In this document: in pieces, positions 11,077 through 62,227 of the stretch | Numbering within the stretch: position 1 is the first letter of the stretch | Layout: each line of letters starts with the position of its first letter | From: Flavobacteriales bacterium | GTDB lineage: Bacteria > Bacteroidota > Bacteroidia > Flavobacteriales_F > PHOS-HE28 | Direction of reading: 5' to 3' | Length of the DNA: 64,000 nt | Assembly: GCA_023382455.1 (NCBI GenBank) | Contig: JAHDVX010000012.1 | Coordinates: 44,519 to 108,518, forward strand | The notes under the pieces: generated by a model | Database searches by the model: none | Told to the model about the DNA's origin: nothing | Seen by the model: the letters and a program-made list of their open reading frames with translations, nothing else | Translations under genes and position numbers: made by a program

Positions 11077-11209
11077 CCAGCCACGGGCCTCCCGCATTGG
11101 CCCCGCCACGCTGTTCAGCAGCTGGAGGGGACCACTTGGCGGCCTGCGTTGCAGGCCCCCGTGAGCGCCGGCCGCCTACCTTGGCCCGAGCCTTGTGCTT
11201 GTACGCCTC

Positions 11210-15696: not shown

Positions 15697-15706
15697 TCCC
15701 GCAATC

Positions 15707-22637: not shown

Positions 22638-22663
22638 GCCGTGAAGGTAGCGGCAAGGGCCGC

Positions 22664-37716: not shown

Positions 37717-37833
37717 AGGGCGAAGATGGACCTTTTGTGGCTGGGGAAAACTTCCTTGTGAATGGCGGTGTCCGACAGCTTCCTCGGCCTATCTTGCCAC
37801 CAAACCTTTGACGGCAAATCTGCCAAAGCACAA

Positions 37834-38787
37834 ATGACAAGTGTGGAGATCTGCGCCGGTGCAGGCGGGCAATCCTTGGGCTTGGAGCGGGCCGGTTTCG
37901 ACCATGAAGCCTTGGTGGAGATCGATGATGCCTGCTGTGCCACCTTGCGCCTGAACAGGCCGCAATGGAATGTGCTGCATGGCGACGTCAATGGATTCGA
38001 TGGGCGGCCATTCAAGGGTGTAGAACTGTTGGCAGGAGGAGTTCCATGTCCGCCATTCTCCGTGGCCGGAAAACAACTTGGCGCGAAGGATGAGCGGGAC
38101 CTTTTCCCGGAAGCGCTGAGGCTGACCGATGAGATCAGGCCGCGTGCCGTGATGCTGGAGAATGTGCGCGGATTTCTTGACCCGGCCTTCGAGGGTTATC
38201 GGAACCGCCTGTTCGGCCAATTCAGGAAGCTGGGCTACAAACCAGCGATACGCCTATTCCAAGCCTCGGATCACGGGGTGCCCCAGCTACGCCCACGGGT
38301 AGTGATCGTCGCCTTGCGCCCATCGGACGCCGATCATTTTACTTGGCCGGAGAAGAGCACCACACCAGCCCCCACTGTGGGCGAGACCTTGGAGGACCTG
38401 ATGGCAGCGAATGGATGGGCTGGTGCCCGGCAATGGGCAGCGGGCGCACGGGCAATCGCACCGACGATCGTTGGAGGTAGCAAGAAGCATGGTGGACCTG
38501 ATCTGGGACCCACTCGGGCCCGGAAGGCTTGGGCACAATTGGGCGTAGAGGGCGGCACCATTGCGGAAACCGCACCGGAACCAGGCTTCACGGGCATGCC
38601 TCGGCTGACTGTTCGCATGGTCGCGCGGATCCAAGGATTTCCTGACGATTGGCATTTCAGCGGTCGCAAGACCGCCGCCTACCGGCAAGTGGGCAATGCC
38701 TTCCCTCCGCCAGTGGCGGAGGCGGTGGGGCGGAGTATACAAGAGGTGTTCGAGCGTGCATCATTGCGCAGCGTAATGGTGGCATGA
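37834..38787 (+). CDS. DNA (cytosine-5)-methyltransferase (Dcm family); modification subunit of a Type II R-M pair
   Basis: Motif I EICAGAGG, IV GVPCPPFSVAG, VI ENV, VIII QLRPRVVIVA, X QVGNAFPPPVAEAVG. Lower GC than neighbours. Confidence 0.9.
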   Translation: MTSVEICAGAGGQSLGLERAGFDHEALVEIDDACCATLRLNRPQWNVLHGDVNGFDGRPFKGVELLAGGVPCPPFSVAGKQLGAKDERDLFPEALRLTDEIRPRAVMLENVRGFLDPAFEGYRNRLFGQFRKLGYKPAIRLFQASDHGVPQLRPRVVIVALRPSDADHFTWPEKSTTPAPTVGETLEDLMAANGWAGARQWAAGARAIAPTIVGGSKKHGGPDLGPTRARKAWAQLGVEGGTIAETAPEPGFTGMPRLTVRMVARIQGFPDDWHFSGRKTAAYRQVGNAFPPPVAEAVGRSIQEVFERASLRSVMVA

Positions 38788-46101: not shown

Positions 46102-47247
46102 GTGAAGTGGGCTCTGCGTATCCTGGTATTGCTCGCCGTGGTCGTGGGCGGGTCAGCGCTGGCATGGCACTGGGCCGGTCCTGGCCGCCAGCAATGGGTG
46201 AAGGACCAGGTGAAGATCCTGTTGAACCGTAAGCCGCAACGGGTGGGCGGGGCCGTGCCGGCGGCGGCCGTGCCGCTGGTGGAGGGCCTGGGCGTGAGCA
46301 CCGGCGATGAACCGCCGTTCTCCGTGGCATCGGGCCCTTGGTCCATGGTGCAGTACACGGAAGGTGACAAGGCCATCCGCCCTGATCTCCATTACACCTT
46401 CGAGCCCACGCCGGGTGCGGACAGCAGCCGGCTTTCCTCCGCTTGGGCGCATGGCGGCACCCATGCGTTCCGCATGGCCCCGGGGGATGAATATTCGCCG
46501 GCGATCCGGAGGCGGGCGGCGGATGTGGCCATCAAACTTTCCGCCGTGGACGTGGGCTTCTGGATGTGGACCCCGGCCCCGGCCACCCTGCTCACCGCCG
46601 TGGTGACCATTGACCGCAAGGGCAAGCAAATAGCTTGGTACGGCAAGGATCTGCCCGCGGACACGGCGGCAAGGACCGGTGTGCGGTTGAACGCCAGCTT
46701 CCTGATGGGCGACCTGGCCGTGGAGCCCGACGACATCCTTTCCGTCTACCTCTGGAAAAAAGGCGGCGGGGAAGCCTTCATCGACGATATGGACCTGTTC
46801 TTCCACAGCGCCGAGGTGCCCGGCCGGAAACTCGGGAAACCTCTGGCACTGGACAGCTTGGAAGCGGGCGGCCCCGTTCCCTTGACCTACGCCAAGCCCA
46901 CGGTCTCGGATATCCCGGTGGACACGGCGTGCTTCCGGGCCGGCCTGCCCGCATTGCCCACCACCCGCGAGGCCGTCCCCTTCGGCCGGTCCTCGCACGC
47001 GTGGCGCTTCGTTCCCGAGGAAGGCCTGGTCTGGTTGCAGGACACCGGGGGGAAGCCTTTGGGGTTGATTCGGCCCTGGTCGCCTGGCTCACGCAAGGAC
47101 ATCACCCACTTTGACCGCGTGGTGGCCAAAACAACCCCCGACGGGATCGTGGTGACCGGCTTCGACGTGGACCGCACCCACGGTGGTGAGCGTATCGCTG
47201 CTTCACCACGGCCTATCTCGCTCAGCATCACATGGCCCTCCGAATGA
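46102..47247 (+). CDS. Hypothetical membrane-anchored protein, first gene of a four-gene translationally coupled operon
   Basis: GTG start; N-terminal TM MKWALRILVLLAVVVGGSALA; overlaps the next gene by 16 nt. Confidence 0.55.
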   Translation: MKWALRILVLLAVVVGGSALAWHWAGPGRQQWVKDQVKILLNRKPQRVGGAVPAAAVPLVEGLGVSTGDEPPFSVASGPWSMVQYTEGDKAIRPDLHYTFEPTPGADSSRLSSAWAHGGTHAFRMAPGDEYSPAIRRRAADVAIKLSAVDVGFWMWTPAPATLLTAVVTIDRKGKQIAWYGKDLPADTAARTGVRLNASFLMGDLAVEPDDILSVYLWKKGGGEAFIDDMDLFFHSAEVPGRKLGKPLALDSLEAGGPVPLTYAKPTVSDIPVDTACFRAGLPALPTTREAVPFGRSSHAWRFVPEEGLVWLQDTGGKPLGLIRPWSPGSRKDITHFDRVVAKTTPDGIVVTGFDVDRTHGGERIAASPRPISLSITWPSE

Positions 47248-49118
47248 GAATGATCGCTTGGCTGCTGCCACTTCTGCTGGCCGCATGCGGCACCGGCACC
47301 GGCACCAACGCCATGGTGGAGGAATTCCATGTGCTGGACAATTGGGACGGCCGGAATGCGGAGGGCGTGAAATACATTGAACTCGACCACACGGAGGCCA
47401 TCGACAGCGGCTTCGTTGTTCCCTCCGTGCGCCAGGTGGATGGCGGGCGGTTCACGTTCACCTTCCGCGTGTCGGACCCCACGGGCAAGGGCCGGGCCTT
47501 CCGCTACAAGCTGTATTACCGCAACGAATCCTACAAGATGGAGGAAACGCGGCCGGACGGCAGCCAGCATCCCTTGGCGGAGGAGAACTTCTACGGCAGC
47601 TGGGAAAGCGCGGCCGAAGGCTTTCGCACCACACCGCGCACGGATGGCCTGGAGCCGTTGCGCGTCACCGATTCCTTCCGCATCCATGGGGACCCGCGCG
47701 ATGAGGACCGCTTCATGGTGGACGGTGTACGCAAGCGCTGGGCGCGGAACCCGCGTGTGGGCGAATACTCCTTCCTGCTGGTGGTGATGCCGGAGAATGC
47801 CTTCGAGGCGGCGCGGCTGCCGGAGAGCGTGGTGCGGATCGGTACCCGGGAGAACGGGCACTTCGTGGAGCCCTACTGGTATTTCCTCCACGGCCCGGGA
47901 TCGCGCCTGGGCGAGGTGTCCGTGCTCCTGGCCGCGGACTGTTTGAGGGTGGCCGCCATTCCGCCGCTGGGCGCGGGCATCTGGGTGGACGGATCCGATG
48001 CTCTCTCCACCGCGGCATACAGCGGTTCCTGCGGCAACAGTGAGGAGCTTCGCAAGGGTGCGGCCTTCTCCCAGTTCATCCACTACGTGGACGCCTCCAC
48101 GCGCTTCTCCAACATCCCCTTGATCGCCGATGTGCTCGGCAACGAGTACACGCCTGAGGACCATGATTACAACCGCGCCTTCTTCCCCGAGGGCCACATG
48201 GTCTCGCTTACGCCCATGACCACCAAGGCACCTTGCGAAACCGTCAGGTCCAACCCCGACAACAACACTATCGAGATCCACAACCCGGCCTCGCGGCCCG
48301 GTGACCTGCGCAAGGAGAACGTGGGCGTGCGGTCACGGCACGGCCTGATGTACGGCAAGTACTCCGTGAAGTGCAAGCTCACGCCCTTGCTGAACGATTC
48401 GGACATGTGGAACGGGCTCACCAACGCCATCTGGCTGATCTACCAAGGGGCGCCGGGGAACTATCGCCGCATCTGCGAAAAGGACGGCTACATGTCTGAC
48501 TACTACGGCGGTGACGCCGTGGAGCGCGTACCGCAAGTGGCCTATGCGGAGATCGACTTCGAGATCCTGAAGACCCCGCTCTACTGCCCTGACGCCACTT
48601 TCCCGCCGTTGCGGCCCCAACAGGTGGCGGTACCGGGGCAGCGAGCCAACTGGCAGCGCCCTTCGGATGGTGGCATCCCCAAGGGCATGATCACCGTGGC
48701 TTGCACCAACTGGGACATGGCCTGCCATTCACCGGTGGATTTCGCGGCGGGATGCAGGCCCATCGAACATGAGGGGCACACTTACCTGAGCCACCGCTGG
48801 GACGACAACTACCGCGCCATCACCCAGAAGAAGTACGAACCGGATGCCGAGCTGTTCCGTGGCGATCACTATTGGTTCCAGATCGACTGGCGGCCGGACC
48901 AGGTGATCTGGCGCATCGGGCCCGAGCTGGACCAACTGCGCGAGGTGGGCTACATGGACAGCACGGTCACCTCCATCAGCGATGTGCAGATGGAGCTGAT
49001 CGTCACCCAGGAGTTCCATAACACCAAGTGGTGGCCGGGCTCGCCATACGACCAAGGGTGCATTCCCTTTGCGGCAAAGGATTACACCGGCGTGATCCAG
49101 GACGTAGTGATCGAATGA
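47232..49118 (+). CDS. Lipoprotein with a C-terminal GH16-like (concanavalin-type glucanase) region
   Basis: Lipobox LLLAAC; EIDFE motif (GH16 ExDxE catalytic pattern) within YAEIDFEILK. Confidence 0.5.
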   Translation: MALRMRMIAWLLPLLLAACGTGTGTNAMVEEFHVLDNWDGRNAEGVKYIELDHTEAIDSGFVVPSVRQVDGGRFTFTFRVSDPTGKGRAFRYKLYYRNESYKMEETRPDGSQHPLAEENFYGSWESAAEGFRTTPRTDGLEPLRVTDSFRIHGDPRDEDRFMVDGVRKRWARNPRVGEYSFLLVVMPENAFEAARLPESVVRIGTRENGHFVEPYWYFLHGPGSRLGEVSVLLAADCLRVAAIPPLGAGIWVDGSDALSTAAYSGSCGNSEELRKGAAFSQFIHYVDASTRFSNIPLIADVLGNEYTPEDHDYNRAFFPEGHMVSLTPMTTKAPCETVRSNPDNNTIEIHNPASRPGDLRKENVGVRSRHGLMYGKYSVKCKLTPLLNDSDMWNGLTNAIWLIYQGAPGNYRRICEKDGYMSDYYGGDAVERVPQVAYAEIDFEILKTPLYCPDATFPPLRPQQVAVPGQRANWQRPSDGGIPKGMITVACTNWDMACHSPVDFAAGCRPIEHEGHTYLSHRWDDNYRAITQKKYEPDAELFRGDHYWFQIDWRPDQVIWRIGPELDQLREVGYMDSTVTSISDVQMELIVTQEFHNTKWWPGSPYDQGCIPFAAKDYTGVIQDVVIE

Positions 49119-51424
49119 TGATGAAGCACCGAGGTCTTTGGCTCACCCTTTTCCTGTCCGTGGGCCTTCTCGCCTTTTATTTCGGGGCCGTCCTACGATC
49201 GCCCGGCCGGTACATGTTCAATGCCGAAGGCGATGGCCTGAAGAACTATTTCTCCTTTGCTTGGCATGCGGAGCACGATACCTCCCTTACTACGTTCTCG
49301 GGGATGAACTATCCCTTCGGGGAGCACATCGACTATCCGGATGCGCAACCCTTGCAGAGCAACCTGTGGCGCGCAGTGGCCAAGGTGTGGCCAGGGGCCC
49401 TGCAACACACCGTTGCGGTGGTGAACCTGATGATGCTGTTCAGCATCGTGCTCTGCGCGGTATTCCTGTACCTGATCATGCGGGAGCTGGCCATGCCGGA
49501 CCTGGTGGCGGCCTTGTTCGCGGTCTTGATCTCCTTCCTGGCCCCGCAGGTGCTGCGTGGCACGCAGGCGCACTATGCACTGGCCTACGGATGTGCCATC
49601 CCGAGTGCCATGTGGGTGCTGCTGCGGCAATGGCGGAGCAGCCGCCCGTGGCGCTGGGCGGCCGGCATGGTCCTGTTGATCCTGTTCTGGCTGTTCACCC
49701 ACGTCTATCTGGGCTTCATATCGGCGGTATTGGTGCTGGCCACGGGCGCACTTGTCCTGGTATTCCGGGCCGGCGAGCGCCGCGCCGCGTGGGGCATGGT
49801 GGCCGCACCGCTGGCCGCATTCCTCTTGTTCTTCCTTTGGCAGCAGCTCACGGACACCCATACGGGCCGCACGCAGCATCCCACCGGGTTCTTCACGTAC
49901 CAGATGACCTGGTCCACGCTCTTGGCCCCCGATCCCCTCTTCGCCTCCTCCATTTGGACCAGGTTCATCGGGCTGCCCGTGTTCCGGTTGGCGGAAGGAT
50001 GGAACTTCATCGGCCTGGGAACGGAGCTGGTCGTGGTCGTCGTGCTGATCTTGTTGATGCGCGGCCTCGCGAAGGGCACCGCAGGCGAACTGTTCAATCG
50101 TGTGTTCCCCGCGAAACTGTTGTTGTTGCTGGGCGGCTCCCTGCTGCTCCTGGCCTTTGCATTCGGCCTTCCGTTCGATCCCTGGTGCAAGAAGTGCCTT
50201 TGGTATATCCCGACGCTGGGGCAGTTCCGTGCACCGGCTCGTTTCGGGTGGGCCTTCTATTTCGTCATCACTGTGTGGGCGGCACGCACGGCGTGGGTCC
50301 TGTATGACGGTGCCGCGCAAGGCCGGGCGCGCAAGGCCGCAGCGGTGCTGGTGGCCGTGGTGGCGGCCTTCTTTGTCACGGACATGCATGCCTTGGACAG
50401 CTACGTGGCCCGGCGGATCGTGGAGCAGCCCAACTACTTCGATCCGGAGCAGTTGCCGGCGGACATGCAGCCCATCTACCAGGCCGCCAAGCGGGTGGAT
50501 GCCCGGGCCATGGTCACCTTGCCATACTACCACAATGGCGGCGAGGAATACATGGTGCCTGCGGACGAGGCCGGCCTATTGATCGGCCAGGCCATGGCCC
50601 AGCTGACCGGCATACCCCTGATGAATTCGAGCTTCACGCGCACCGGCGTCGAGGAGGTGCGTGAGCTGATCCAGGCATTCGGACCGGATTGGTATCCCAA
50701 GGCGATGGCCGCCAGGTTCCAAGCCTCCGATACGATCCTGCTCATACTTTCCGGCAGCCTCTTGGGACCATACGACCAGGTCTTGGCCTCCCATGGCAGG
50801 GAGCTTGCCAAGGGCGGGCCGTACACCTTGCTGGCCACCACCGCGGGCGAGCTTTTTGCCGATAGGGCGGGCAGGTATGTGGCGCGCTTTGAAGCAAGCC
50901 GGGATACTCTTCATCAAAGTGGCGAATGGCTGTTCAGCAGGCCGGACACGTTCCTGTTCCGCAAGGATTACGATGATAGGCCCGCGACCCATGTGCGTTC
51001 GGGCTCCGGCGCATTCTCGGGCCTGAAGCATGATTTCAACCTGCTGGCGGAATTGCCGGTGGAGGCCATGGATACCGGGGTGACCTACTTGGCCTCATTC
51101 TGGTACTACAACCGCGGGCCCATGCGCAACCATGCTCTTGCGGGGATCGATGACCACGACCCGGTCCAGGGCACAGGTGCTTGGGACTACTATACCGATC
51201 CGCGTTTCGCGCGCACCATCGTGGGCGATTGGAGCTTGGTGGAATTGCCCTTCCGGAAAGGCGGCCCGGGCCACGAGCTGAAATTGTTCGTCCAAGGCGC
51301 GGATTTCTATCCGGACAGCATTTGGGTGGACGACCTCACCGTGCGGGTGGCCGATGTCGATGTGTACAAGGTGGATACGGTCGGGAACAGGCTCTGGTAT
51401 AACAACCACTGGATTGCTCCATGA
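49115..51424 (+). CDS. Large polytopic membrane protein (770 aa), putative GT-C-like glycosyltransferase/flippase-type component
   Basis: ATG overlaps the upstream stop (ATGA); >10 hydrophobic helices followed by a ~350-aa soluble C-terminal domain. Confidence 0.55.
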   Translation: MMMKHRGLWLTLFLSVGLLAFYFGAVLRSPGRYMFNAEGDGLKNYFSFAWHAEHDTSLTTFSGMNYPFGEHIDYPDAQPLQSNLWRAVAKVWPGALQHTVAVVNLMMLFSIVLCAVFLYLIMRELAMPDLVAALFAVLISFLAPQVLRGTQAHYALAYGCAIPSAMWVLLRQWRSSRPWRWAAGMVLLILFWLFTHVYLGFISAVLVLATGALVLVFRAGERRAAWGMVAAPLAAFLLFFLWQQLTDTHTGRTQHPTGFFTYQMTWSTLLAPDPLFASSIWTRFIGLPVFRLAEGWNFIGLGTELVVVVVLILLMRGLAKGTAGELFNRVFPAKLLLLLGGSLLLLAFAFGLPFDPWCKKCLWYIPTLGQFRAPARFGWAFYFVITVWAARTAWVLYDGAAQGRARKAAAVLVAVVAAFFVTDMHALDSYVARRIVEQPNYFDPEQLPADMQPIYQAAKRVDARAMVTLPYYHNGGEEYMVPADEAGLLIGQAMAQLTGIPLMNSSFTRTGVEEVRELIQAFGPDWYPKAMAARFQASDTILLILSGSLLGPYDQVLASHGRELAKGGPYTLLATTAGELFADRAGRYVARFEASRDTLHQSGEWLFSRPDTFLFRKDYDDRPATHVRSGSGAFSGLKHDFNLLAELPVEAMDTGVTYLASFWYYNRGPMRNHALAGIDDHDPVQGTGAWDYYTDPRFARTIVGDWSLVELPFRKGGPGHELKLFVQGADFYPDSIWVDDLTVRVADVDVYKVDTVGNRLWYNNHWIAP

Positions 51425-52692
51425 ACCTTGGTCGCGATTGGTCGCCTTGGCTGGCGCTTGTGGTTTTCCTCGCGGGCTTTCTTTCTTTTCTGGGGCACAA
51501 CGGCCACATCTTGGATGTCATGCTGGCGCACAACAGTGACCCCCGGGGTTATTACCAGTATCTCCCGGCAATCTTCTTGGACCACGACCTGCGCGGCATG
51601 CCCTACGTGCATGTACTCCCCAACGGGAACCACCTCAGTATGTTCAACATTGGCTTGGCCTACCTGTTGGCCCCGTTCTTTTTGGCGGCGCACGGGCTTT
51701 GCTTGGCCGGGTTGGCACCGGCGGACGGTTACTCGTGGCCCTACGCCGTGGCCGTAGGCTTGGCAGCATCCACCTATGCGGCCTGGGGATGCACGCTGGT
51801 GGCGAGGCCCTTGGGTAAGCGCTTCGGGACGCTGAACGCCTCCTTGGCGGTGCTGTTGCTCTTCGCCTGCACCAACCTGTACTTCTACACGGCCATGGAG
51901 CCCGGCATGAGCCATGTGTACTCCTTCTTCCTGTTCACCGTGCTACAGTGGGCCACCCTGCGCATGCGGGAGGCGCCGAAAGGGAGAACGTTGGTGCTGT
52001 TGGCGGTCACGTGGTCGGTGATCGTGCTGGTGCGGCCCTCGAACGGCATCGCAGGGCTGTTCCCGCTGCTCTATGGCACCACGGGGCCGCGTGGGGTGCG
52101 CGAGCGGCTGGCTTCGTGGGTTGCTGACTGGCGGGCGTTGGCTCTTGCCGTGTTTCTCGGGTTGCTGCCATGGATCCCCCAGCTTCTTTATTGGCGGTCG
52201 ATCACCGGCAGCCCCATCGTCTTTACCTACGGCACCATGGGCCAAGGCTTCCATTGGCTGTACCCGCGCCTGTGGGAAGTGCTGGCGCACCCTTGGAACG
52301 GCTGGTTCCTCTACTCGCCAATTATGCTGCCGGTGATGGCGGCCTTGTTGTGGATGGCCTTCAGGCGGACCGAAGGCGCACGTACCGTGCTGCTCCTCTG
52401 GCTGCTTGCCTGGTACATCATCGCCTCTTGGTGGTGCTGGTGGCTGGGCGGCGCGTTCGGGCACCGCGGCTTTGTGGAATACATGGCCTTCCTGGCCCTG
52501 CCTACCGCGTGGCTGGTCCAGCGTATCGCTTGGCGGAAACAGGCAGCCCGGGCGGCCGCTTGGGTGCTGGCGCTGCTCTTTGCCTGGGCCAACATCGGCC
52601 TCAGTTGGAACTACCTGTCCCCTTGGGACGGGCCGGAGTGGACGATGCAGAGCGTGCAACGGGAATACCTGCGCCTGCTCCCGCACAGGTGA
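51421..52692 (+). CDS. Polytopic membrane protein, GT-C-fold glycosyltransferase-like (ArnT/PMT type)
   Basis: ATGA overlap with the upstream gene; first loop HNSDPRGYYQYLPAIF resembles the ArnT D-E-x-R-Y loop-1 motif; ~11 TM helices. Confidence 0.55.
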   Translation: MNLGRDWSPWLALVVFLAGFLSFLGHNGHILDVMLAHNSDPRGYYQYLPAIFLDHDLRGMPYVHVLPNGNHLSMFNIGLAYLLAPFFLAAHGLCLAGLAPADGYSWPYAVAVGLAASTYAAWGCTLVARPLGKRFGTLNASLAVLLLFACTNLYFYTAMEPGMSHVYSFFLFTVLQWATLRMREAPKGRTLVLLAVTWSVIVLVRPSNGIAGLFPLLYGTTGPRGVRERLASWVADWRALALAVFLGLLPWIPQLLYWRSITGSPIVFTYGTMGQGFHWLYPRLWEVLAHPWNGWFLYSPIMLPVMAALLWMAFRRTEGARTVLLLWLLAWYIIASWWCWWLGGAFGHRGFVEYMAFLALPTAWLVQRIAWRKQAARAAAWVLALLFAWANIGLSWNYLSPWDGPEWTMQSVQREYLRLLPHR

Positions 52693-52754
52693 CGAAAATC
52701 GCCTGCCCCGTTTACCGCAATCCGTATTTCAAGATGCACCAGATGGCCCGCCGC

Positions 52755-55385
52755 TCATCTCTTGAACATGGCCAGATCTGCGGAGGGCACTTGATGGACT
52801 TTGCGCAACAAGACCGCCATATCCGACACGCCCTCCAAGACCCCCGCAGCATATTCCGGGCGTAGATCAAGTGCCATTTGCCCGAATTCATGCGGAAGGG
52901 TATAGGTGAGATCGAACGGACCCTGCCCCATGATCAGGCGCTGACGGTACATCTCGGTTCCTTGGTCCATCACGCGTAGGACCAAGTGCCACGTGCCACC
53001 TTCCTGCAGCAACCGGGCGTCCCCTGTCACACTGACCTCAAATAGCGGGACATCGTTACCTACATCAAACGGTATTGGCCCATCTTGGGCGTAGACTGCC
53101 GGATCCCAGCCACTTAGGGTCATGGTCCGGTTTTGCTGGCCATGGCCCGGTTCAACAGCTTGATCGGATGGGGTCAAGAGATCGGCAGCAAACACGGTAT
53201 CCGTGGTCCATTGCCTGGTCGCATCCTTCCTTTCAAACACCCAGACCGAGAACGGGGATGTATCATTCCAGCCGTCCATCCCTAAAAACATGCGTTGGAG
53301 GGTGAACGCGCCATCATCCAGGATCCTTTGTATCGGAATCGCCGATTCGTTCGGGCCGAAATGGGAATCCCAGACCAGTATGTCATGTTCGGCCAAACCG
53401 GCCCCCGGCCTGGACCAAGGCAATACGGACAGGTTCACGGCGCCGGTGCTATCCCAAGGGTCCTTGCCGGTAACGATCCCGAAGTATGGATATAGGTAGG
53501 CCACCCGTCCTCCGGGCCGCTCCAACCCCCGGACGTACGAGGCCGCGCGGTCCGTTTGCAACTGTTCCGCCACCATGACCGGCGGAAGAGGAACCCGGCC
53601 AAATACATCCTTGATGCCAAGTGGTAGCAACAGAAGCCAACAGCCTGCCGCAAATGCCAAGCGCACGGCTTTGCCAGGTGACTTTTTCAGGCCACTGATG
53701 GACGTGGATGCCACGCCAAGAATGAACAACACGCTAAGCGGTACCGTGGTTGCAAACACACGCAGATATCCGGCCGACCCCGAATGGCCGTTCCACCAGG
53801 CATAGCTGTGCAGGAACCAAATGGCAACCACCGGCAAACCGGTCAACACCAAGGTGTCCAACAGTGCCTTACGTTGCTCCTTGCGATGATGCCAAACGAA
53901 AGGCCATGCGAGGAAGGATGCCGTCAGTAGCATGAGAAGGGGCAGGCCGAGGATGTCGGGTGCCTGTTGCAGGAAATGGGACCAGTCACCATGGCCATAT
54001 TGGGTGTTCCCCAGATAGGGGTCTTCATGCAGGATCCATAGGAAGTCGCCATAGGCCAACCACGTGAAGACGGCATAGATGAAGGGTCCGCAGGCCAATA
54101 ATGGCAACTTTCGCCAATGCCCGTTCCAAGCGGCCCAAAGCGCCACAAACGGGAGAAGCCCGGCCGCCTCCGGCCTGGAGAATGGAAGAAGCGAGGCCAG
54201 AAGCATGCCCGCCGTGACCCTCCCCGATCGGAGAAGGCCGACCACGAGAACCGCCAAGAGCCCGAAAAGGGGCTCGGTCATGCCTGAATAGACCATAAAG
54301 AGGTACTGCGGCGAGATCAGCAGCAATACGGGAACCGCCCAACGTAGTACGGTCGCACTATCCGTGATATGGCGCATGATCACTACCATCGTGAACAAGG
54401 CAACCACGGCATTGAACAGGGCGAGCCCCCAAAAACCAAGTTGTGCGAAAGGCGAGGCCAGCAGCACGAACAAAGGCTTGGCCCAATTGTCCAGGAACAA
54501 GGAAGGGTGCTTCCAAGCGTGCAATGCCTGCAAGTAGTGCAATGCCCCATCGCCGATCTCAGGCTGGGCCGCGGTTGAAGCGCGTATGGCCACAAGTGCG
54601 GCCAAGGAGATCACGGCCGGGACCAAGGCGCCCCACGTTCCCCATCCGGATCGTAATGAACCTTGGCCCATTGCCTGCAATCCGTACTTGAGGATGCACC
54701 AAATGGCCCGGAAACCGTCCTTCCAGCCTATCTTTTTCCCTTCGGCGTATGTGCGGCCGTAGTAACTGATGCCGACCTCATAGATGCGGATGCCCTTGAC
54801 CCGCGCAAGCTTCGCGGTCACCTCGGGCTCAAAGCCGAACCGCTTTTCCTTCAGGTCCAAGCCTTGGGCAATGTCGGTGCGGATCAGCTTGTAGCAGGTC
54901 TCCATGTCGGTCAGGTTCAAGTTGTTGAACGTGTTGGAGAGCTGGGTGAGGAACTTGTTGCCGATGCTGTGCCAGAAGAAGAGGATGCGGTGCGGATGGT
55001 GGCCCATGAAGCGCGAGCCGTAGACCACGTCGGCGAAGCCTTCCACCACGGGGCGCAACAGGTCGTTGTATTCGCGGGGATCGTATTCCAGGTCGGCATC
55101 CTGCACGATCAGGTATTCGCCGGTGGCTTCCTTGATGCCGCGGTGGATGGCCGCGCCCTTGCCCATGTTGTGCGGCTGCTGGATGAAGCGGATGTCCAGG
55201 CCGGGATTGGCGGCCATGTAGCGCTCCACTGCGGCCACGGTCCCGTCCGTACTCCCGTCGTTCACGATGATCACCTCCTTCTGGATGCCATCGCGCAATT
55301 GCACGTCCCGCACCTTGTCCAGGATCAGGTGGATGGTGCGCTCCTCATTGAAGGCGGGGATGATGATGGACAGCTTGGTAAGCAT
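52755..55385 (-). CDS. Fusion protein: N-terminal GT2 polyprenol-phosphate sugar synthase (Dpm1/ArnC-like), then a ~12-TM GT-C-like membrane domain and a C-terminal soluble domain
   Basis: MLTKLSIIIPAFNEE..VNDGSTDGT..VQDADLEYDP GT2 motifs, then >10 hydrophobic helices and a ~300-aa C-terminal domain. Confidence 0.7.
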   Translation of the reverse strand: MLTKLSIIIPAFNEERTIHLILDKVRDVQLRDGIQKEVIIVNDGSTDGTVAAVERYMAANPGLDIRFIQQPHNMGKGAAIHRGIKEATGEYLIVQDADLEYDPREYNDLLRPVVEGFADVVYGSRFMGHHPHRILFFWHSIGNKFLTQLSNTFNNLNLTDMETCYKLIRTDIAQGLDLKEKRFGFEPEVTAKLARVKGIRIYEVGISYYGRTYAEGKKIGWKDGFRAIWCILKYGLQAMGQGSLRSGWGTWGALVPAVISLAALVAIRASTAAQPEIGDGALHYLQALHAWKHPSLFLDNWAKPLFVLLASPFAQLGFWGLALFNAVVALFTMVVIMRHITDSATVLRWAVPVLLLISPQYLFMVYSGMTEPLFGLLAVLVVGLLRSGRVTAGMLLASLLPFSRPEAAGLLPFVALWAAWNGHWRKLPLLACGPFIYAVFTWLAYGDFLWILHEDPYLGNTQYGHGDWSHFLQQAPDILGLPLLMLLTASFLAWPFVWHHRKEQRKALLDTLVLTGLPVVAIWFLHSYAWWNGHSGSAGYLRVFATTVPLSVLFILGVASTSISGLKKSPGKAVRLAFAAGCWLLLLPLGIKDVFGRVPLPPVMVAEQLQTDRAASYVRGLERPGGRVAYLYPYFGIVTGKDPWDSTGAVNLSVLPWSRPGAGLAEHDILVWDSHFGPNESAIPIQRILDDGAFTLQRMFLGMDGWNDTSPFSVWVFERKDATRQWTTDTVFAADLLTPSDQAVEPGHGQQNRTMTLSGWDPAVYAQDGPIPFDVGNDVPLFEVSVTGDARLLQEGGTWHLVLRVMDQGTEMYRQRLIMGQGPFDLTYTLPHEFGQMALDLRPEYAAGVLEGVSDMAVLLRKVHQVPSADLAMFKR

Positions 55386-55484
55386 GCAATTGCGTTGTTT
55401 CCATCGCTGTACGCACGGCCCGCGATCAACCACGGCAAACGTAAAGCGCCGATCTCATAATAATGGATGGAAGATGATGCCTCT

Positions 55485-57098
55485 TTACCGCAGAGGGTGA
55501 AGCCGGTAAACATTAACCCCATTTACTTCACCGATCAGGTCTTGCAGGTACGGACCGGTAACAGGGTCCCATGTCCATTTGGGGTCCACACAAAGGAAAT
55601 ATTTCGCGCCATTGGCGATCAACATGTCTATCCATCCGGGTTCATTCAGGTGGTTGCCATAATTATTCCATCCCCGATTTCCCATGAAAAGGAACGACGC
55701 GTTGATCGTCCAGTCGTCGGCAAAGATGACACGGTCGTCAGGCTGTATCCCCAACGCCCTCAACGCGGGTTGGATATGCACCACGGGTTCCAGGCTCCAA
55801 TAGTTCAATCCGTTCCAATGAGGCAGCTCCGCCTCATGGTATATGGGCCAAAGTTCCCCGGCACCCATGGTTCCCGAGGTATCGTAGCGCATCTCCAAGT
55901 TTTGTGCGGTGTAAGCCACGTTGTAAGCCAGTAATCCCGCCATGGCCAACCGGGCCCAACGGCCGTTCCAGATTTTCGGGTAGTTCCGCTTCAGTACCCA
56001 CAGAAAGCTCACCAGGAGCACCGCGAACGTGATCGTTGGGTTGATGAAGTAATAGTCGTGGTTGTTCAAGGCCGGGAACCAGAATAGGACGAACATCACC
56101 GTGCCCACGAACAATAAGGCATTCAAGACAACGACCTGCTTCGGTAACGCACGAACCTTGACCAACAAGGCTCCCAAGGCAACCGCGAACAGGGCCCAAA
56201 CCGAGGTGTCGAAGATCTGGAACACGACAATGTGTCGACCGATGTCCCACGCCTCCCTTCTTGCGGCGGGGTCCATGTCCCAGATAGGCCAGAGGTTGTT
56301 GAAGGTATACTTCCCGCCATGCTGGCCATTGTACCAGGCGGCGTATGCATACCACGCATATACGGCCAGGAACCCGATGGCCATCGTGGCCCATTCTCGC
56401 CGGCTTCCCTTGAACAAGGACCACTGTGCGGTTGCGTTCCCACGGTACAGCGTGCTTAAGGCCAGCAGCCCGGCCAAGGCGACCAAGCTCATGCCCGCCG
56501 TTACCTTCAACAACATGCCCAAGCTGAAGAAGAAAACGGCCCATGTCCAATACTTGTGCTGCCCCTCGGTGGCGTATCGGACGGTGTACCACCAACCGAT
56601 AAGCGCCAAGTCGAAGGCGGGGACGTCCGTAAGGAACCCGATCCCGAAATAGACGATCGCGGGCGAGGCGTAGAAGAGCAATGCGACGCAGATCGCCCAG
56701 AAAGCGCTTTGGAGGATCCTTTTCACGGAAGCGAACAGCGCGAGCGTGCCCAGGAAGTGCAACACAAAGCCGATCAGCCGATAGATGAACAGATCCGGCC
56801 CGGTGATGCGCCAGATCATGCCCACCAGGTAGTAGATCAGGGGAAATTCCCCGGCGGTCTTGCCGGTTGTATACCCGTCCGAAAAAAGATTGTGGATCGT
56901 CGGCTGGAAAAAGTTCCAGGTGCTGTCGTAATAGTTCCAGGCAAGCGAGATGCAATCAGCTTGGCGCCATAGATGATGGGGCTGGGGGAGCAGGTGCAAC
57001 ACGCGGCCCGCCTCGTATGCGGAGGACATGGCGATGAATAAGGCCACGAGCCACCACACTGTCTTGGACTGCGAGGTGGGCTTGCGGACCCGGTTCAT
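55485..57098 (-). CDS. Polytopic membrane protein (537 aa), GT-C-like family candidate
   Basis: ~12 hydrophobic helices; C-terminal soluble domain. Confidence 0.55.
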   Translation of the reverse strand: MNRVRKPTSQSKTVWWLVALFIAMSSAYEAGRVLHLLPQPHHLWRQADCISLAWNYYDSTWNFFQPTIHNLFSDGYTTGKTAGEFPLIYYLVGMIWRITGPDLFIYRLIGFVLHFLGTLALFASVKRILQSAFWAICVALLFYASPAIVYFGIGFLTDVPAFDLALIGWWYTVRYATEGQHKYWTWAVFFFSLGMLLKVTAGMSLVALAGLLALSTLYRGNATAQWSLFKGSRREWATMAIGFLAVYAWYAYAAWYNGQHGGKYTFNNLWPIWDMDPAARREAWDIGRHIVVFQIFDTSVWALFAVALGALLVKVRALPKQVVVLNALLFVGTVMFVLFWFPALNNHDYYFINPTITFAVLLVSFLWVLKRNYPKIWNGRWARLAMAGLLAYNVAYTAQNLEMRYDTSGTMGAGELWPIYHEAELPHWNGLNYWSLEPVVHIQPALRALGIQPDDRVIFADDWTINASFLFMGNRGWNNYGNHLNEPGWIDMLIANGAKYFLCVDPKWTWDPVTGPYLQDLIGEVNGVNVYRLHPLR

Positions 57099-57111
57099 GG
57101 CACCAGCCGGC

Positions 57112-57768
57112 TCACACCACCATCTCCTTCACCCCTTCCACCACCACCAGCCTCCCCTCCGTCTTGGCCTTCACCTCGTCCACGGTCACGCCGGGGGCGA
57201 GCTCCTTGAGCACGAAGGCGCCATCGGTGATGTCGAACATGCCCAAGTCGGTGAGGACACGTTTCACGCATCCCACACCGGTTAGCGGGAGGCTGCAGCG
57301 CTTCAGCAGCTTGCTGTCGCCGTGCTTGTTGGTGTGCATCATGCACACGATGATGTTCTGTGCGCTGGCCACCAGGTCCATGGCGCCGCCCATGCCCTTC
57401 ACCATCTTGCCGGGGATCTTCCAGCTGGCGATGTCGCCGTTCTCGGCCACCTCCATGGCGCCCAGCACGGTGAGGTCCACCTTTTGTCCGCGGATCATGG
57501 CGAAGCTGGTGGCGCTGTCGAAGATGGCCGCCCCGGCCTTCAGGGTCACGGTCTGCTTGCCTGCGTTGATCAGGTCGGCGTCTTCCTCGCCGTCGTACGG
57601 GAACTCGCCCATGCCCAGGATGCCGTTCTCGCTTTGCAGCGTCACGTCCATGCCCGGTGGGATGTGGTTGGCCACCAAGGTGGGTATGCCGATGCCGAGG
57701 TTCACGTAGAAGCCGTCCTGCAGTTCACGCGCGATGCGCTTCGCCATTTGGTTCTTGTCCAAAGCCAT
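57112..57768 (-). CDS. scoB: 3-oxoacid CoA-transferase subunit B
   Basis: SENG active-site motif (LQSENGILGMG). Confidence 0.9.
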   Translation of the reverse strand: MALDKNQMAKRIARELQDGFYVNLGIGIPTLVANHIPPGMDVTLQSENGILGMGEFPYDGEEDADLINAGKQTVTLKAGAAIFDSATSFAMIRGQKVDLTVLGAMEVAENGDIASWKIPGKMVKGMGGAMDLVASAQNIIVCMMHTNKHGDSKLLKRCSLPLTGVGCVKRVLTDLGMFDITDGAFVLKELAPGVTVDEVKAKTEGRLVVVEGVKEMVV

Positions 57769-57786
57769 GGTCCGGGGTCGTCTGGT

Positions 57787-59586
57787 TCAAGGTTTGTGTC
57801 CTTCCTTCCAAGGGCGGACAAGATACACCCGGAGCCTTCCCTCGCTGGTGTATGACTGGTGTAGCTGGTTCCACAGGTAGGCCACCACCTCCCCGGCATC
57901 GGAAGGCACCTCGGGTATGCGGCGCACCCCTTGGAGGCCAATGCCGCGGCCCGGGTCGCGAAGGAATTGGATGAGCATGAAATCGCGGTGAGGCGGCAAG
58001 CCGGCTGCGATCGTTTCCACCACTATGACGCCGGTCATGGGCTCGTGTTCCGGCTTCAACGCGAGGTCCAGCTCGATCCGGTAGGCATTCCCCTTCATGG
58101 CATCCGTGGGCGGGCGCCAGAGTTCGCGCAACTCGGCATTGCCGTGCACGGGTGGCAGGATGCTGTCCAGTACCAAGGTGGAGGTCTCGGCTTGCGTTCG
58201 CCCGTACAAGGCTGCCCGCTCCGTGCCGGCCAAGGCCAGTAACCGGTAACCCGGCGGCACTTCGGACCGTTGCGGGTCCAGCAGGAGCAGGTCACCGCCG
58301 CCAAGGGGCCATTGGGTGATGTCCACGGCGTTCAACCGCAAGCCGTGCTCGCGCTGGCCGAAGCCCCAGCAGGCGATCATTTGGTGGTAGCCGCCGATGG
58401 TGGGAAGGCTGGCGGTCCGGTTTTTCCAGTCGTTCGCGGCCCGGTACAGGGGGGCGGGAATGGCCTGCTCGGGCCAGTACATGGTGGCGTTCAGGTTGGC
58501 CGTGGCTACGGCGTGCACGGGCAGGGCCAGCAGGGGAAGCGCGGCCCACTGCCAACGTTGCCGGGCCTGGGCCACCCGTTCCACCGCGAAGGCGAACAGG
58601 AGCAGGAACGGGGTCACCCAGTGCAGCACGGTGCGGTCCTCGGGGAAGGGTGTGCCCTTCCAATGGTGCAGCACCACGCGGGCCAGGCCATCGGCCCAAA
58701 GGAGGCCGGCGCACAGCACCGGGACCCACGCGTGCATGCCGCGCGGCGCGGTGCGGAAGGCTGCCGCGGCCACGGCGGTGCAGGCGATGAGCACCAGCAG
58801 GACCAGCAGGGGTGCGGCCGGGGCATCGGTGCCCGCGATCAGTGGCATCAAGGAAGCCACGGATCCGCGGACCACCCCCAAGGTGTTGCCGTAATACAGG
58901 CAGTCGCTGCGGGACAGCCACTCGGCGGTGGCCACGGCGGCCAGGAAAGGCATGGCACCCAGGGCGACCCAAAGGCCGGCCTGCCGGATCGCAGCCTTGG
59001 TGGGAAGCAGGCGCCAAGGCGAACACGCGGCCGTGAAGGCGAGGACCGCGGCCCAGGCGACCAGCAGGTTCAGGGAGGCCCAACCGGCGCAGGCCATGGC
59101 CAGCAGGGTGATGGCCAGCCCCTTGTTGCCCGGCCTCACCGACCAAGTGGAAAGATGGTACAGCGCCATGCACCAGAAGGCCATGGCCAGGCCGTAGCCG
59201 CGGAAGAGCGAGAAGAAGTCCAGCAGGAACGGGGTGAGCAGCAGGGCGGCCCACAGGCAGCGGCGTACGGGGCCGTGCCGCAGGTGCGTTCCCCATTTCC
59301 AGACGTGGAAGGCATAAAGGGGGAAGGCCAGGAGGGAAGGCAGGCGCAAGGCCCATGCGTGCATGCCGAACAGTTTCCAGCCGAGCCAGCCCAGGGCCGT
59401 TGCCAGCACGTGGTTGCCGGCGTCGGGCGGCGCCAGGAAGGGCAGGAAGTCCGAGGTTTCCACAAAGCGGAAGAAGGCCATGGCCTCATCGTGCACCACG
59501 GGCACCAGCACGGTACGTGCCGCCGCGTAGGCGAAGACCACGGTGGAAAGGGCGATGAACACCACGCGCTCCGCCCGGGCATCCAT
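57787..59586 (-). CDS. GT-C-fold glycosyltransferase (family 39/83-like, PMT/ArnT type) membrane protein
   Basis: DE motif in the first extracytoplasmic loop (LVPVVHDEAMAFF) after TM1; ~11 TM helices. Confidence 0.6.
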   Translation of the reverse strand: MDARAERVVFIALSTVVFAYAAARTVLVPVVHDEAMAFFRFVETSDFLPFLAPPDAGNHVLATALGWLGWKLFGMHAWALRLPSLLAFPLYAFHVWKWGTHLRHGPVRRCLWAALLLTPFLLDFFSLFRGYGLAMAFWCMALYHLSTWSVRPGNKGLAITLLAMACAGWASLNLLVAWAAVLAFTAACSPWRLLPTKAAIRQAGLWVALGAMPFLAAVATAEWLSRSDCLYYGNTLGVVRGSVASLMPLIAGTDAPAAPLLVLLVLIACTAVAAAAFRTAPRGMHAWVPVLCAGLLWADGLARVVLHHWKGTPFPEDRTVLHWVTPFLLLFAFAVERVAQARQRWQWAALPLLALPVHAVATANLNATMYWPEQAIPAPLYRAANDWKNRTASLPTIGGYHQMIACWGFGQREHGLRLNAVDITQWPLGGGDLLLLDPQRSEVPPGYRLLALAGTERAALYGRTQAETSTLVLDSILPPVHGNAELRELWRPPTDAMKGNAYRIELDLALKPEHEPMTGVIVVETIAAGLPPHRDFMLIQFLRDPGRGIGLQGVRRIPEVPSDAGEVVAYLWNQLHQSYTSEGRLRVYLVRPWKEGHKP

Positions 59587-59591
59587 GCGGT

Positions 59592-60290
59592 TCAGGAGCG
59601 TTGCCGCACGGTGCGCTGCTCGATGCGTTTCTCGTACTTCTCCCCTTGGAAGATGCGGTGCACGAAAATGCCCGGCGTGTGGATCTGGTCGGGATCGAGC
59701 TCGCCGGGTTGCACCAGGTGTTCCACTTCGGCGATGGTGATGTTGCCGGCCATGGCCATCATGGGGTTGAAGTTGCGCGCCGTATGGCGGTACACCAGGT
59801 TGCCGTTGGTATCGCCCTTCCAGGCCTTCACCAGGCTGAAGTCGGCGCGCAGCCAGTGCTCCATCACGTACATCTTGCCATCGAACTCGCGGGTTTCCTT
59901 GCCCTCGGCCACCTCGGTGCCGTAGCCTGTGGGGGTGAAGAAGGCCGGAATGCCCGCGCCGCCCGCACGGCAGCGCTCGGCGAGGGTGCCTTGCGGGGTG
60001 AGGTCCACCTCCAGCTCGCCGGAAAGCAGTTGCCGCTCAAACTCCGCGTTCTCCCCCACGTAGCTGGCGATCATCTTCTTGATCTGCCGCTGCTTCAGGA
60101 GAAGCCCCAGCCCGAAGTCGTCCACCCCCGCATTGTTGCTGATGCAGGTGAGGCCTTTCACGCCGCTGCGCACCAGGGCTGCGATCAGGTTCTCGGGGAT
60201 GCCGCAGAGGCCGAAGCCGCCCACCATCAATGTCATGCCGTCGCGGAGGCCTTCCAGGGCCGCGTCCGCGTTGCTTACCACCTTGTTCAT
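59592..60290 (-). CDS. scoA: 3-oxoacid CoA-transferase subunit A
   Basis: [36 protein letters not shown] canonical N-terminus. Confidence 0.9.
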
Positions 60291-61667: not shown

Positions 61668-62000
61668 TCAACGAAGGATCAACAATCCTGTGGATGCATC
61701 CCTGTCAAAGGCCTCAAGGGTTTCCATATTCCCCAAGATGATGTCCAACCATTCCGCCGTGGTATGGTTGTCCATGGACAAAACAACCACCTTGGGTGGC
61801 ATGCCGTGCAGCACGCTCATTTCCACGAAATCGTCATCCTGTGTCAGGATGGTAAACCCTTCGCTTTTAGCGATCTCCCAGATCTTGCTATCCGGCCGGG
61901 AGGTCAACTGCAATGGTTTCACATGGGTTGTATCGGGAAACGCATGATCGAGGTGCCTGACCAGCTTGTCCGACAAGTTCTCGCCGATCAGGAACTTCAT
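61668..62000 (-). CDS. DUF5615-family PIN-like protein (toxin-like partner of DUF433)
   Basis: MKFLIGENLS...ILTQDDDF typical DUF5615. Confidence 0.8.
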   Translation of the reverse strand: MKFLIGENLSDKLVRHLDHAFPDTTHVKPLQLTSRPDSKIWEIAKSEGFTILTQDDDFVEMSVLHGMPPKVVVLSMDNHTTAEWLDIILGNMETLEAFDRDASTGLLILR

Positions 62001-62227
62001 GCCGCTGAAGGCACAATGCTGGTGTGGCGTTCGCGATCAGCCGCATACGCCAAGCAGGCACGGATATCCTCCTCCGTCAGCTCATCAAAATCCGCGAGGA
62101 TCTCCTGAATGCCCATGCCGCTTGCCAGATAGCCCAGCACATCGCCCACAGTGATGCGCAGGCCACGAATGCACGGTTTGCCGCTGCGCTTCCCGGGTTC
62201 AATGGTGATGATCTTGCGGTAGTCCAT
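61997..62227 (-). CDS. DUF433 domain protein (antitoxin-like partner)
   Basis: GKPCIRGLRITVGDVLGYLASGMGIQEILADFDELTEEDIRACLAYAA; ATGA overlap with the downstream gene. Confidence 0.8.
   Translation of the reverse strand: MDYRKIITIEPGKRSGKPCIRGLRITVGDVLGYLASGMGIQEILADFDELTEEDIRACLAYAADRERHTSIVPSAA

Follow-up and report, generated by a model that had tools for sequence, protein, structure and literature searches.

What would a Flavobacteriales bacterium, its genome recovered from wastewater, do with five polytopic, glycosyltransferase-like membrane proteins encoded in one locus, together with a GT2 glycosyltransferase domain and a putative glycan-active lipoprotein? How enterobacteria, Firmicutes and mycobacteria use polyprenol-phosphate sugars for periplasmic glycosylation is well understood; in Bacteroidota, a phylum where surface glycans shape ecology in the gut, the mouth and the environment, the process is to our knowledge essentially unstudied. 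Here we consider a gene cluster in a 64,000-nucleotide stretch of DNA, referred to as the window. Judging from homology and synteny, we think it rather probable that the locus directs extracytoplasmic glycosylation from a polyprenol-phosphate-monosaccharide donor, with a cell-envelope glycan as the most likely acceptor. The pathway is of a known type, in an uncharacterised and unusually elaborate form.

Layout of the locus

The genes and domains considered here are as follows.

46102–47247, plus strand: A381, single-TM-anchored periplasmic protein; residues ~95–237 form a CBM-like beta-sandwich
47232–49118, plus strand: B628, lipoprotein whose C-terminal domain is GH16-like but divergent; E440-I-D-F-E444 at 48549–48563
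49115–51424, plus strand: C (769 aa), DUF6311-family GT-C consisting of TM, periplasmic alpha/beta and CBM22-like beta-sandwich domains
51421–52692, plus strand: D423, short GT-C-like transferase, without a C-terminal beta-sandwich
54678–55385, minus strand: E876 N-terminal domain (residues 1–236), cytoplasmic GT2, probable polyprenol-phosphate-hexose synthase
52755–54677, minus strand: E876 C-terminal part (residues 237–876), GT-C-like TM domain plus a C-terminal beta-sandwich
55485–57098, minus strand: F537, GT-C transferase with a Pfam PMT_2 match
57112–57768, minus strand: G (scoB), 3-oxoacid CoA-transferase subunit B
57787–59586, minus strand: H599, GT-C transferase with a C-terminal CBM-like beta-sandwich
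59592–60290, minus strand: I (scoA), CoA-transferase subunit A, context only

The open reading frames lie where an earlier, sequence-only reading of this DNA had placed them, and their GC3 is high, as for real genes. The four plus-strand genes form the overlapping operon that the same reading described, and all three overlaps are found in the sequence. The stop codon of A381 (47245–47247) overlaps B628, which may start at ATG 47232 or at ATG 47244, the latter giving an ATGA overlap and agreeing with the 624-aa NCBI call; ATG 49115 of C overlaps the B628 stop TGA (49116–49118), and ATG 51421 of D423 overlaps the C stop TGA (51422–51424). From ATG 49115, C is 769 aa long rather than the 770 aa first given. 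On the minus strand, the intergenic gaps are 5, 18, 13 and 99 nt in the order scoA-H599-scoB-F537-E876, which is probably an operon with scoA as its first gene. Scans for sigma-70 promoters and terminators did no better than on shuffled sequence; these models are ill-suited to Bacteroidota.

The cluster had been counted as eight genes, and eight there are, but the one left unlisted is scoB (TIGR02428, 3.2e-98, above cut-off; also PF01144), which sits within the cluster and is not a glycosylation gene. Its partner scoA is identified by TIGR02429 (2.5e-86). H599 lies between the two, in an order that is conserved. Co-transcription of scoAB with GT-C genes has no obvious tie to glycosylation. A comparison of gene order with related genomes had been proposed, and the same gene set is indeed seen again in related Flavobacteriales contigs, so the cluster goes beyond chance.

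A candidate donor synthase

Which enzyme might supply the donor? The N-terminal domain of E876 matches PF00535 (1.6e-31), is followed by 9–10 hydropathy peaks, as part of the GT2–TM fusion originally proposed, and carries a DxD motif (D96-A-D98). Its best match in the PDB, over residues 4–219, is the Dol-P-Man synthase of P. furiosus (5mlz, 4.6e-15), with GtrB and ArnC next. Among NCBIfam models, AglJ, PpgS and Dol-P-hexose transferase match over their full length, all below cut-off, and no equivalog cut-off is reached (for AglJ, 95.7 against 325). With its DxD motif and its similarity to known synthases over the whole domain, this GT-A-type GT2 makes E876 a probable polyprenol-phosphate-hexose synthase. 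A second GT2 nearby (36718–37716) was considered for this role and set aside; it resembles EpsE and has no match among the polyprenol-phosphate-sugar synthase models.

GtrB and ArnC have two C-terminal TM helices, whereas the window GT2 is of a soluble, ~240-aa type, fused to a GT-C domain; in mycobacterial Ppm1 the fusion partner is instead an Lnt-like domain. Stand-alone orthologs of the GT2 have no TM segments, and that they act on a membrane lipid is an assumption; in the window, the fused GT-C domain is the anchor.

Across Bacteroidota the GT2 is conserved, at 67–88% identity. A protein with at least seven TM segments lies within 3 kb of the GT2 ortholog in 52 of 80 Bacteroidota loci, mostly less than 100 bp away, and 31 of these 80 contain a protein of the H599, C, E or D families; D423 is the commonest neighbour. 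Among culturable genera, Flavobacterium, Chryseobacterium, Mucilaginibacter and Nafulsella have a GT-C gene beside the GT2 (loci L052, L055, L064, L074 and L082). The GT2 is fused to a GT-C domain in no fewer than three lineages, represented by the window, P0153 and L009, and this natural fusion backs a link from donor to transferase. Could the E876 fusion be an assembly artefact? We rejected this explanation, since the identical protein is found on four contigs from different sources and there are independent fusions. From adjacency and fusion to a Dpm1-like GT2, we infer that the GT-Cs would use a lipid-phosphate-linked donor on the extracytoplasmic face. GT-C content, on the other hand, varies among close relatives, and the combination of a constant GT2 with a variable GT-C set suggests that the glycan structures vary by strain.

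No flippase gene of the GtrA, SMR or MATE type was found in the cluster, and there is no small multi-TM ORF between 46 and 60 kb. A Wzx-like gene lies 30 kb from the cluster, and distant related loci contain genes of the GtrA or Wzx-like kind.

Five GT-C proteins from different families

C, D423, the C-terminal part of E876, F537 and H599 are polytopic, as are GT-C enzymes with their 8–13 or so TM helices, and we assign them to the GT-C fold from fold matches of H599 and C, the PMT_2 match of F537 and the profile links among all five. The top Foldseek matches of H599 are EmbC and EmbB, which have the same GT-C plus CBM architecture; in the fold searches with H599 and C, Pmt4 and ALG12 likewise rank near the top, and matches of this kind place C in GT-C. 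Precomputed annotation assigns DUF6311 (PF19830) to all homologs of C. Only F537 passes a GT39/GT83-type model above threshold (Pfam PMT_2 at 2e-9, scoring 38.3 bits where the cut-off is 26.1), with some homologs of the others matching weakly: PMT_2 in 3 of 29 members of the D423 family and GT87 in 4 of 34 homologs of the E876 C-terminal part, which are mostly stand-alone proteins of ~620 aa. D423, which has at least nine TM segments, also matches NF047440 weakly.

Profile comparison by hhalign joins all five proteins in one network. The E876 C-terminal part aligns to the H599 family over its full length (97.9%, E 3.8e-13) and to the F537 family at 91.9%, and D423 reaches the F537/PMT_2 family at 96.0%, the H599 family at 95.3% and C at 89.3%. 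The five had been called paralogs, but pairwise BLASTP among seven cluster proteins gave nothing significant, which rules out recent paralogy; they are distant superfamily relatives, akin at the level of profile and fold. Likewise, the labels ArnT-like, GT39 and GT83 hold as resemblance and not as family membership. Neither the Pfam PMT/PMT_2 models nor the NCBIfam ArnT model matched H599, C, D423 or the E876 C-terminal part at E<=0.1, and Pfam and NCBIfam scans returned no match for A381, B628, C or H599. When C, H599, B628 and the family alignments were run against PDB sequences by phmmer and profile hmmsearch, there were no meaningful matches and ArnT and PMT were not reached; sequence alone cannot place these families. 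Literature searches on DUF6311, AZOBR_p60025 and Bacteroidota GT-C/PMT/Dpm1 systems returned no paper on these families.

In all five proteins, a conserved acidic residue closely follows TM1, in the first extracytoplasmic loop. In H599, the DE motif noted at the outset is present as VHDEA, with D33 and E34 (59485–59490) invariant in all 51 homologs. The corresponding Asp is that of EGDGL in C (49232–49234; GDG Asp in 42/42), Asp40 of NSDPR in D423 (51538–51540; 29/29 sequences), Asp279 of EIGDG in E876 (54549–54551; kept in at least 90% of sequences, with H283 invariant) and Asp48 of WRQADC in F537 (56955–56957; four of five aligned homologs). Loss of these acidic residues from orthologs had been named as evidence against a GT-C assignment, and they are retained. 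By position, they would correspond to the catalytic Asp of solved enzymes.

A conserved pair and a shared beta-sandwich

As had been read from the sequence, A381 is anchored by a single N-terminal TM segment, and B628 is a lipoprotein (lipobox LLLAAC, Cys19) with an EIDFE motif, at residues 440–444. Of 80 metagenome loci, 59 have an A381-like gene directly upstream of the B628 homolog, and in distant loci the pair shares its operons with genes for a GT2 of the GtrB type, a flippase (Wzx-like or GtrA), a PMT_2 GT-C and an MBOAT protein. The long A381-like proteins of these distant loci were considered as GT-Cs and rejected because they have a single TM segment.

Although B628 itself has no match in Pfam, nor in the PDB by sequence or family-profile search, sub-threshold matches to Pfam GH16 (PF00722) occur in 13 of 47 relatives, the best of them at 2.9e-5 and 21.7 bits against a cut-off of 22. 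The catalytic ExDxE motif of GH16 enzymes (lichenase, XTH and Crh types) is present in B628 as E440-I-D-F-E444 and kept in its family as E-I-D-F/I-E: E, D and E each occur in at least 90% of the 47 homologs, and I441 is invariant. B628 departs from GH16 enzymes in its lipoprotein anchor, in having A381 as an obligate gene partner and in an additional N-terminal region of ~330 residues.

A381, which has no Pfam or NCBIfam match, shares a CBM-like beta-sandwich with C, E876 and H599. Its sandwich domain aligns by hhalign to the C-terminal sandwiches of E876 (residues ~771–862, at 52800–53075; 95.3%), H599 (93.8%) and C (92.3%), and those of the GT-Cs resemble CBM22, CBM4 and CBM16. Because this sandwich occurs in three GT-Cs and A381, and the GH16-like lipoprotein has an intact ExDxE motif, a glycan is the most likely acceptor. 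CBM-like beta-sandwiches occur in protein-binding contexts too, and we count this against a glycan acceptor.

A proposed pathway and its alternatives

How might these components work together? In the pathway that we propose, the cytoplasmic GT2 domain of E876, judging by its homology, would attach a hexose, taken from a nucleotide sugar, to polyprenol (undecaprenyl) phosphate, and a flippase would bring the lipid-linked sugar to the periplasmic face. There, C, D423, the E876 C-terminal part, F537 and H599 would pass the sugar to acceptors using the conserved loop-1 Asp, a role predicted from the observed fold and motif. An envelope glycan, whether a polysaccharide or the glycan of LPS or a glycolipid, would thus be built or decorated stepwise, with A381 binding the glycan and B628 trimming or transglycosylating it. 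The core of the sequence-only reading, that a lipid-linked donor synthase together with several GT-Cs makes up a periplasmic glycosylation system, held up in all its testable elements.

Three-component systems offer the closest comparison, namely GtrA/GtrB/Gtr* O-antigen glucosylation, ArnC/ArnEF/ArnT, CsbB/GtcA/YfhO teichoic-acid glycosylation and GT136 pentofuranose transfer (PMC11127046). As in these systems, the gene for a GT2 polyprenol-phosphate-sugar synthase adjoins those of extracytoplasmic GT-Cs and the synthase is conserved while its GT-C partners vary; one related locus, L112, even has GtrA, a GT2 and a PMT_2 GT-C. The window differs in having five GT-Cs from different families rather than one, in lacking in its cluster the dedicated flippase gene of a Gtr-type system, and in adding the conserved pair of CBM-like anchored protein and GH16-like lipoprotein. 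The stepwise pathway proposed here resembles the Emb/Aft/Mpt logic of mycobacteria as well as CsbB/YfhO and GtrB/Gtr* decoration. There is no sequence-level membership in the mycobacterial and corynebacterial sets (EmbA/B/C, AftA–D, MptA–C, PimE, Ppm1), for which PDB profile searches were negative, and the window envelope, unlike theirs, is that of a Gram-negative Bacteroidota.

Might the acceptor instead be protein? PMT/TMTC-like GT-Cs could move the hexose of polyprenol-phosphate-hexose directly onto Ser/Thr of proteins in the periplasm or outer membrane or of T9SS cargo, with several GT-Cs serving several substrate classes. Dpm1 and the PMT/ALG enzymes (GT39, GT22, GT58) of eukaryotes have these likenesses to the cluster: the GT2 finds its best PDB match by sequence in an archaeal Dol-P-Man synthase, Pmt4 and ALG12 are fold matches, and loop 1 of H599 contains a DE motif. 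In contrast to PMTs, the cluster proteins have no Pfam match to a MIR (beta-trefoil) domain, their extra domains being C-terminal CBM-type beta-sandwiches, and four of the five GT-Cs have no Pfam PMT match. Nothing found points to T9SS cargo, which had been suggested as a target. The CBM-like domains and the GH16-like partner lead us to favour a glycan over a protein acceptor, and we consider protein O-glycosylation unlikely.

Less probable still is modification of lipid A or the LPS core, of the ArnC/ArnT or FlmF/FlmK type, which would alter surface charge and antimicrobial peptide resistance. One GT-C would suffice for this purpose, not five from different families; the cluster has no ArnA/B/D-type sugar-modifying genes, the five proteins all fall short of the ArnT family models, and ArnT systems come without CBM-like domains or a GH16-like partner. 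Finally, it is very improbable that there is no single system, only independent envelope enzymes gathered by accretion (for example, GT-Cs inserted into a scoAB operon) with no common donor or target: the interleaving of scoA and scoB with GT-C genes, the varying GT-C content of relatives and the five different families speak for accretion, but the GT2–GT-C fusion in three lineages, the translational coupling of the plus-strand genes, the adjacency of GT2 to polytopic membrane genes across the phylum, the beta-sandwich common to A381, C, E876 and H599, and the co-occurrence of A/B, GT2 and GT-C genes in related and distant loci all speak against it.

Implications for Bacteroidota envelope biology

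A bolder form of the envelope-glycan proposal is that the locus represents an undescribed, Bacteroidota-wide pathway, in which a soluble Dpm1-like GT2, variable GT-Cs and A381/B628 would use polyprenol-phosphate-monosaccharides to make or reshape an envelope glycan wholly within the periplasm. We offer this idea tentatively, as a possibility that is on balance doubtful. If true, a Gram-negative phylum would follow the logic of mycobacterial arabinan and lipomannan synthesis, GT-C cassettes that vary between strains would diversify the cell surface, and the GH16-like enzyme would be a dedicated transglycosylase or trimming enzyme.

The locus offers a concrete, testable gene set, including a GT2 that is conserved across the phylum and, besides the PMT_2-type F537, four GT-C families without a curated assignment, one of them recorded only as DUF6311. 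The A381/B628 pair could identify the acceptor glycan. Should the acceptor prove to be a new envelope polymer, or should one of the GT-Cs glycosylate protein, a gap in the envelope biology of Bacteroidota would be filled.

Architecture of the locus

The locus is real, non-random and conserved. The window that contains it (G+C ~64%) is matched by the Flavobacteriales MAG GCA_048500375.1 (contig JASNYC010000003.1) and by several activated-sludge contigs, and genes were called by ORF listing and translation, backed by GC3.

Genes of the locus (ORF calls unless a family model is named)
46102-47247, plus: A381, membrane-anchored protein with a CBM-like domain
47232 or 47244 to 49118, plus: B628, lipoprotein, suggestively GH16-like
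49115-51424, plus: C, 769-aa GT-C-like membrane protein
51421-52692, plus: D423, GT-C-like membrane protein
52755-55385, minus: E876, GT2 domain fused to a GT-C-like domain
55485-57098, minus: F537, GT-C-like membrane protein
57112-57768, minus: G (scoB), 3-oxoacid CoA-transferase subunit B (TIGR02428, 3e-98)
57787-59586, minus: H599, GT-C-like membrane protein
59592-60290, minus: I (scoA), 3-oxoacid CoA-transferase subunit A (TIGR02429, 2.5e-86)

All three plus-strand junctions (A/B, B/C, C/D) overlap, with ATGA at B/C and C/D, and at A/B too provided that B628 starts at ATG 47244. The start of C, ATG 49115, lies within three consecutive ATG codons (49112-49123); the resulting 769 aa agree with the NCBI call and make the loop-1 Asp of C residue D40. 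Gaps on the minus strand from I through H and G to F are 5, 18 and 13 nt, the first two enclosing H599 between scoA and scoB (57112-60290), and 99 nt then lead to E. A sequence-only reading had proposed an eight-gene cluster; its plus-strand ORFs stand, and the eighth gene, on the minus strand, is scoB, which by TIGR02428 encodes a ketone-body/acyl-CoA enzyme subunit.

Several Flavobacteriales MAGs share the scoA/H599/scoB order (related loci L007, L012, L021, L035, L067 and L093), and L012 has three tandem H599 paralogs in that place. Close relatives keep a frame of beta-lactamase-family gene, exonuclease, A and B, then GT2, scoB, H599 and scoA, and differ in GT-C content: C and D may be present or absent, as may F, and E-type genes number one or two. 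A donor synthase that is kept while the transferases around it vary is the pattern of the Gtr serotype-converting systems.

A probable donor synthase coupled to GT-C-like proteins

Residues 1-236 of E876 form a GT2 domain (PF00535, 1.6e-31) with a DAD motif, which its sequence matches mark as Dpm1-like. Among solved structures, the Pyrococcus Dol-P-Man synthase matches best (4.6e-15, with the entire catalytic domain aligned), ahead of GtrB and ArnC. Full-length NCBIfam matches are to the polyprenol-phosphate-sugar synthases AglJ, PpgS and Dol-P-hexose transferase, the remaining GT2 models covering just the N-terminal half of the domain; all GT2 scores fall below the NCBIfam equivalog cut-offs.

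In a genome scan, the GT2 domain is 67-88% identical across Bacteroidota classes, its orthologs being nearly always ~240-aa proteins without a TM segment. What, then, accompanies it? A protein with at least seven TM segments lies within 3 kb in 52 of 80 loci, mostly less than 100 bp off, and 31 of the 80 have a gene from the H599, C, E or D family. The E C-terminal family mostly stands alone (~620 aa); it is fused to GT2 in the window (the same protein on four contigs), in the homolog P0153 and in L009, and a stand-alone E-type gene lies directly downstream of GT2 in L007, L010, L011, L044 and L069. These fused and adjacent occurrences are Rosetta-stone evidence that GT2 and GT-C function jointly, and the order within E876, from cytoplasmic GT2 through TM1 to a periplasmic loop bearing the Asp, fits joint action.

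The five membrane proteins had been called GT-C paralogs; however, pairwise BLASTP among them finds no similarity, and they are better described as distant members of one superfamily than as recent paralogs. Profile-profile comparison (hhalign) connects all five families: H599 with the E C-terminal part (97.9%, E 3.8e-13, full length), D423 with F537 (96.0%), H599 with D423 (95.3%), the E C-terminal part with F537 (91.9%) and C with D423 (89.3%). Only F537 has a Pfam match (PMT_2, 2e-9, 38.3 bits, cut-off 26.1) and reaches a curated GT-C family model; some members of the GT-C-like families show weak PMT_2 or GT87 matches, and by sequence the system does not belong to GT39, GT83 or any Emb/Aft family. 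Predicted models have pLDDT 94.3 for H599 (AlphaFold) and 93.9 for C. The GT-C fold is assigned to two proteins by predicted structure and to three by profile. The 94 H599 homologs all come from Flavobacteriales MAGs. For C, Pfam sources differ: precomputed annotation places PF19830 (DUF6311) on all 50 homologs (P0095-P0144), whereas hmmscan against a Pfam copy reports it for none of 42 family members.

An Asp is kept 8-15 residues past TM1 in each family (VHDEA in H599, where D33-E34 is invariant across the alignment; EGDGL in C; NSDPR in D423; EIGDG in E876; WRQADC in F537). The sequence-only reading had named transporter folds or unconserved loop motifs as grounds for its refutation; neither turned up.

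The A381/B628 pair

B628 is a lipoprotein whose family has ~200 representatives, with E440-I-D-F-E444 near-invariant. Pfam GH16 matches lie near threshold in 13 of 47 family members, and neither B628 alone nor the family profile matches Pfam or PDB sequences; the GH16-like label is for these reasons suggestive rather than proven. An A381-like gene lies directly 5' of the B628 homolog in 59 of 80 metagenome loci, these having been retrieved via the B628 family.

In distant relatives, operons of two types carry the pair. One (L101, L113, L125 and L132; ~3300-9900) combines the A381-like and B628-like genes with those for a Wzx-like flippase and for a GT2 of the GtrB type, which has two TM segments at its C-terminus; the other (L112:641-11355) encodes GtrA, a soluble GT2, a PMT_2 GT-C, the pair and a trailing MBOAT O-acyltransferase. 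The pair therefore recurs with polyprenol-phosphate-sugar machinery.

In L101, response regulator and histidine kinase genes lie 3' of the B628-like gene, and L112 and L125 have candidates by size and position alone. In another subgroup (L161:1721-6145, L144:1766-6187), two further genes lie ahead of the pair: one for a protein of ~1470 aa that has NPCBM-associated and FlgD-Ig domains, the other for an additional B628-like protein of shorter length.

Other genes of the window

A Wzx/MOP-type "polysaccharide biosynthesis" membrane protein (15692-17194, plus; 30 kb upstream) and an EpsE-like GT2 (36718-37716, minus; 9 kb upstream) are possible contributors of flippase or acceptor synthesis. A 2065-aa ORF (322-6519, plus; TTG start), in a region of 68-69% G+C with strong GC and AT skew, may encode a large surface or repeat protein. 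A 1201-aa histidine kinase (11195-14800, plus; HAMP, HisKA, HATPase) has an unusually large membrane sensor domain: about 12 TM segments are predicted within the first ~900 residues of the protein. Also present are a protein with CotH-kinase and lamin-tail domains (17241-19592, minus), an NYN/LOTUS-domain protein (21903-22667, minus), a dcm-type cytosine methyltransferase (37762-38787, plus) and a small toxin-antitoxin-like DUF433/DUF5615 pair (~61668-62227, minus), with the zinc-dehydrogenase gene on one side and a hypothetical gene of 193 aa on the other.

Proposed function and outlook

Gene order, coupling, the fusion, the GT-C fold, the conserved loop-1 Asp, the Dpm1-like GT2, the recurrence of the A/B pair and a CBM-like domain shared by A381, C, E876 and H599 are the features around which a pathway can be sketched. 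GT2 would make undecaprenyl-phosphate-hexose, which would be flipped across the membrane, and the GT-Cs would transfer the sugar in the periplasm to an envelope glycan, bound by A381 and cut or transglycosylated by B628. We consider it quite probable that the locus performs polyprenol-phosphate-sugar-dependent periplasmic glycosylation, as first proposed from a lipid-linked donor synthase beside several GT-Cs; with the corrections made here, GT2 matches, fusion, conserved Asp and synteny support this proposal. A glycan acceptor we favor with less assurance. Protein O-glycosylation of the PMT type is an unlikely alternative, and a pathway of the ArnT kind that modifies lipid A or the LPS core is less likely again. 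Weak points of the glycosylation reading are the soluble GT2 without its own membrane anchor, the probable co-transcription with scoAB, which has no obvious link to glycosylation, and the absence of a flippase gene from the cluster (46-60 kb), the nearest candidate being the Wzx-like gene 30 kb away. That the genes share no common system is the least credible account, given the Rosetta-stone evidence.

As proposed, the locus would operate in the manner of GtrABC, ArnC/ArnT and CsbB/YfhO, all of them three-component systems, and of the GT136 systems (PMC11127046). In its GT-C multiplicity and GT-C plus CBM architecture it resembles mycobacterial Emb/Aft/Mpt with Ppm1. We found no paper on these families, and source annotations are generic. 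The main interest lies in the phylum-wide coupling of GT2 and GT-C, the GT2-GT-C fusion, and the newly recognised pairing of a CBM-like protein with a suggestively GH16-like lipoprotein.
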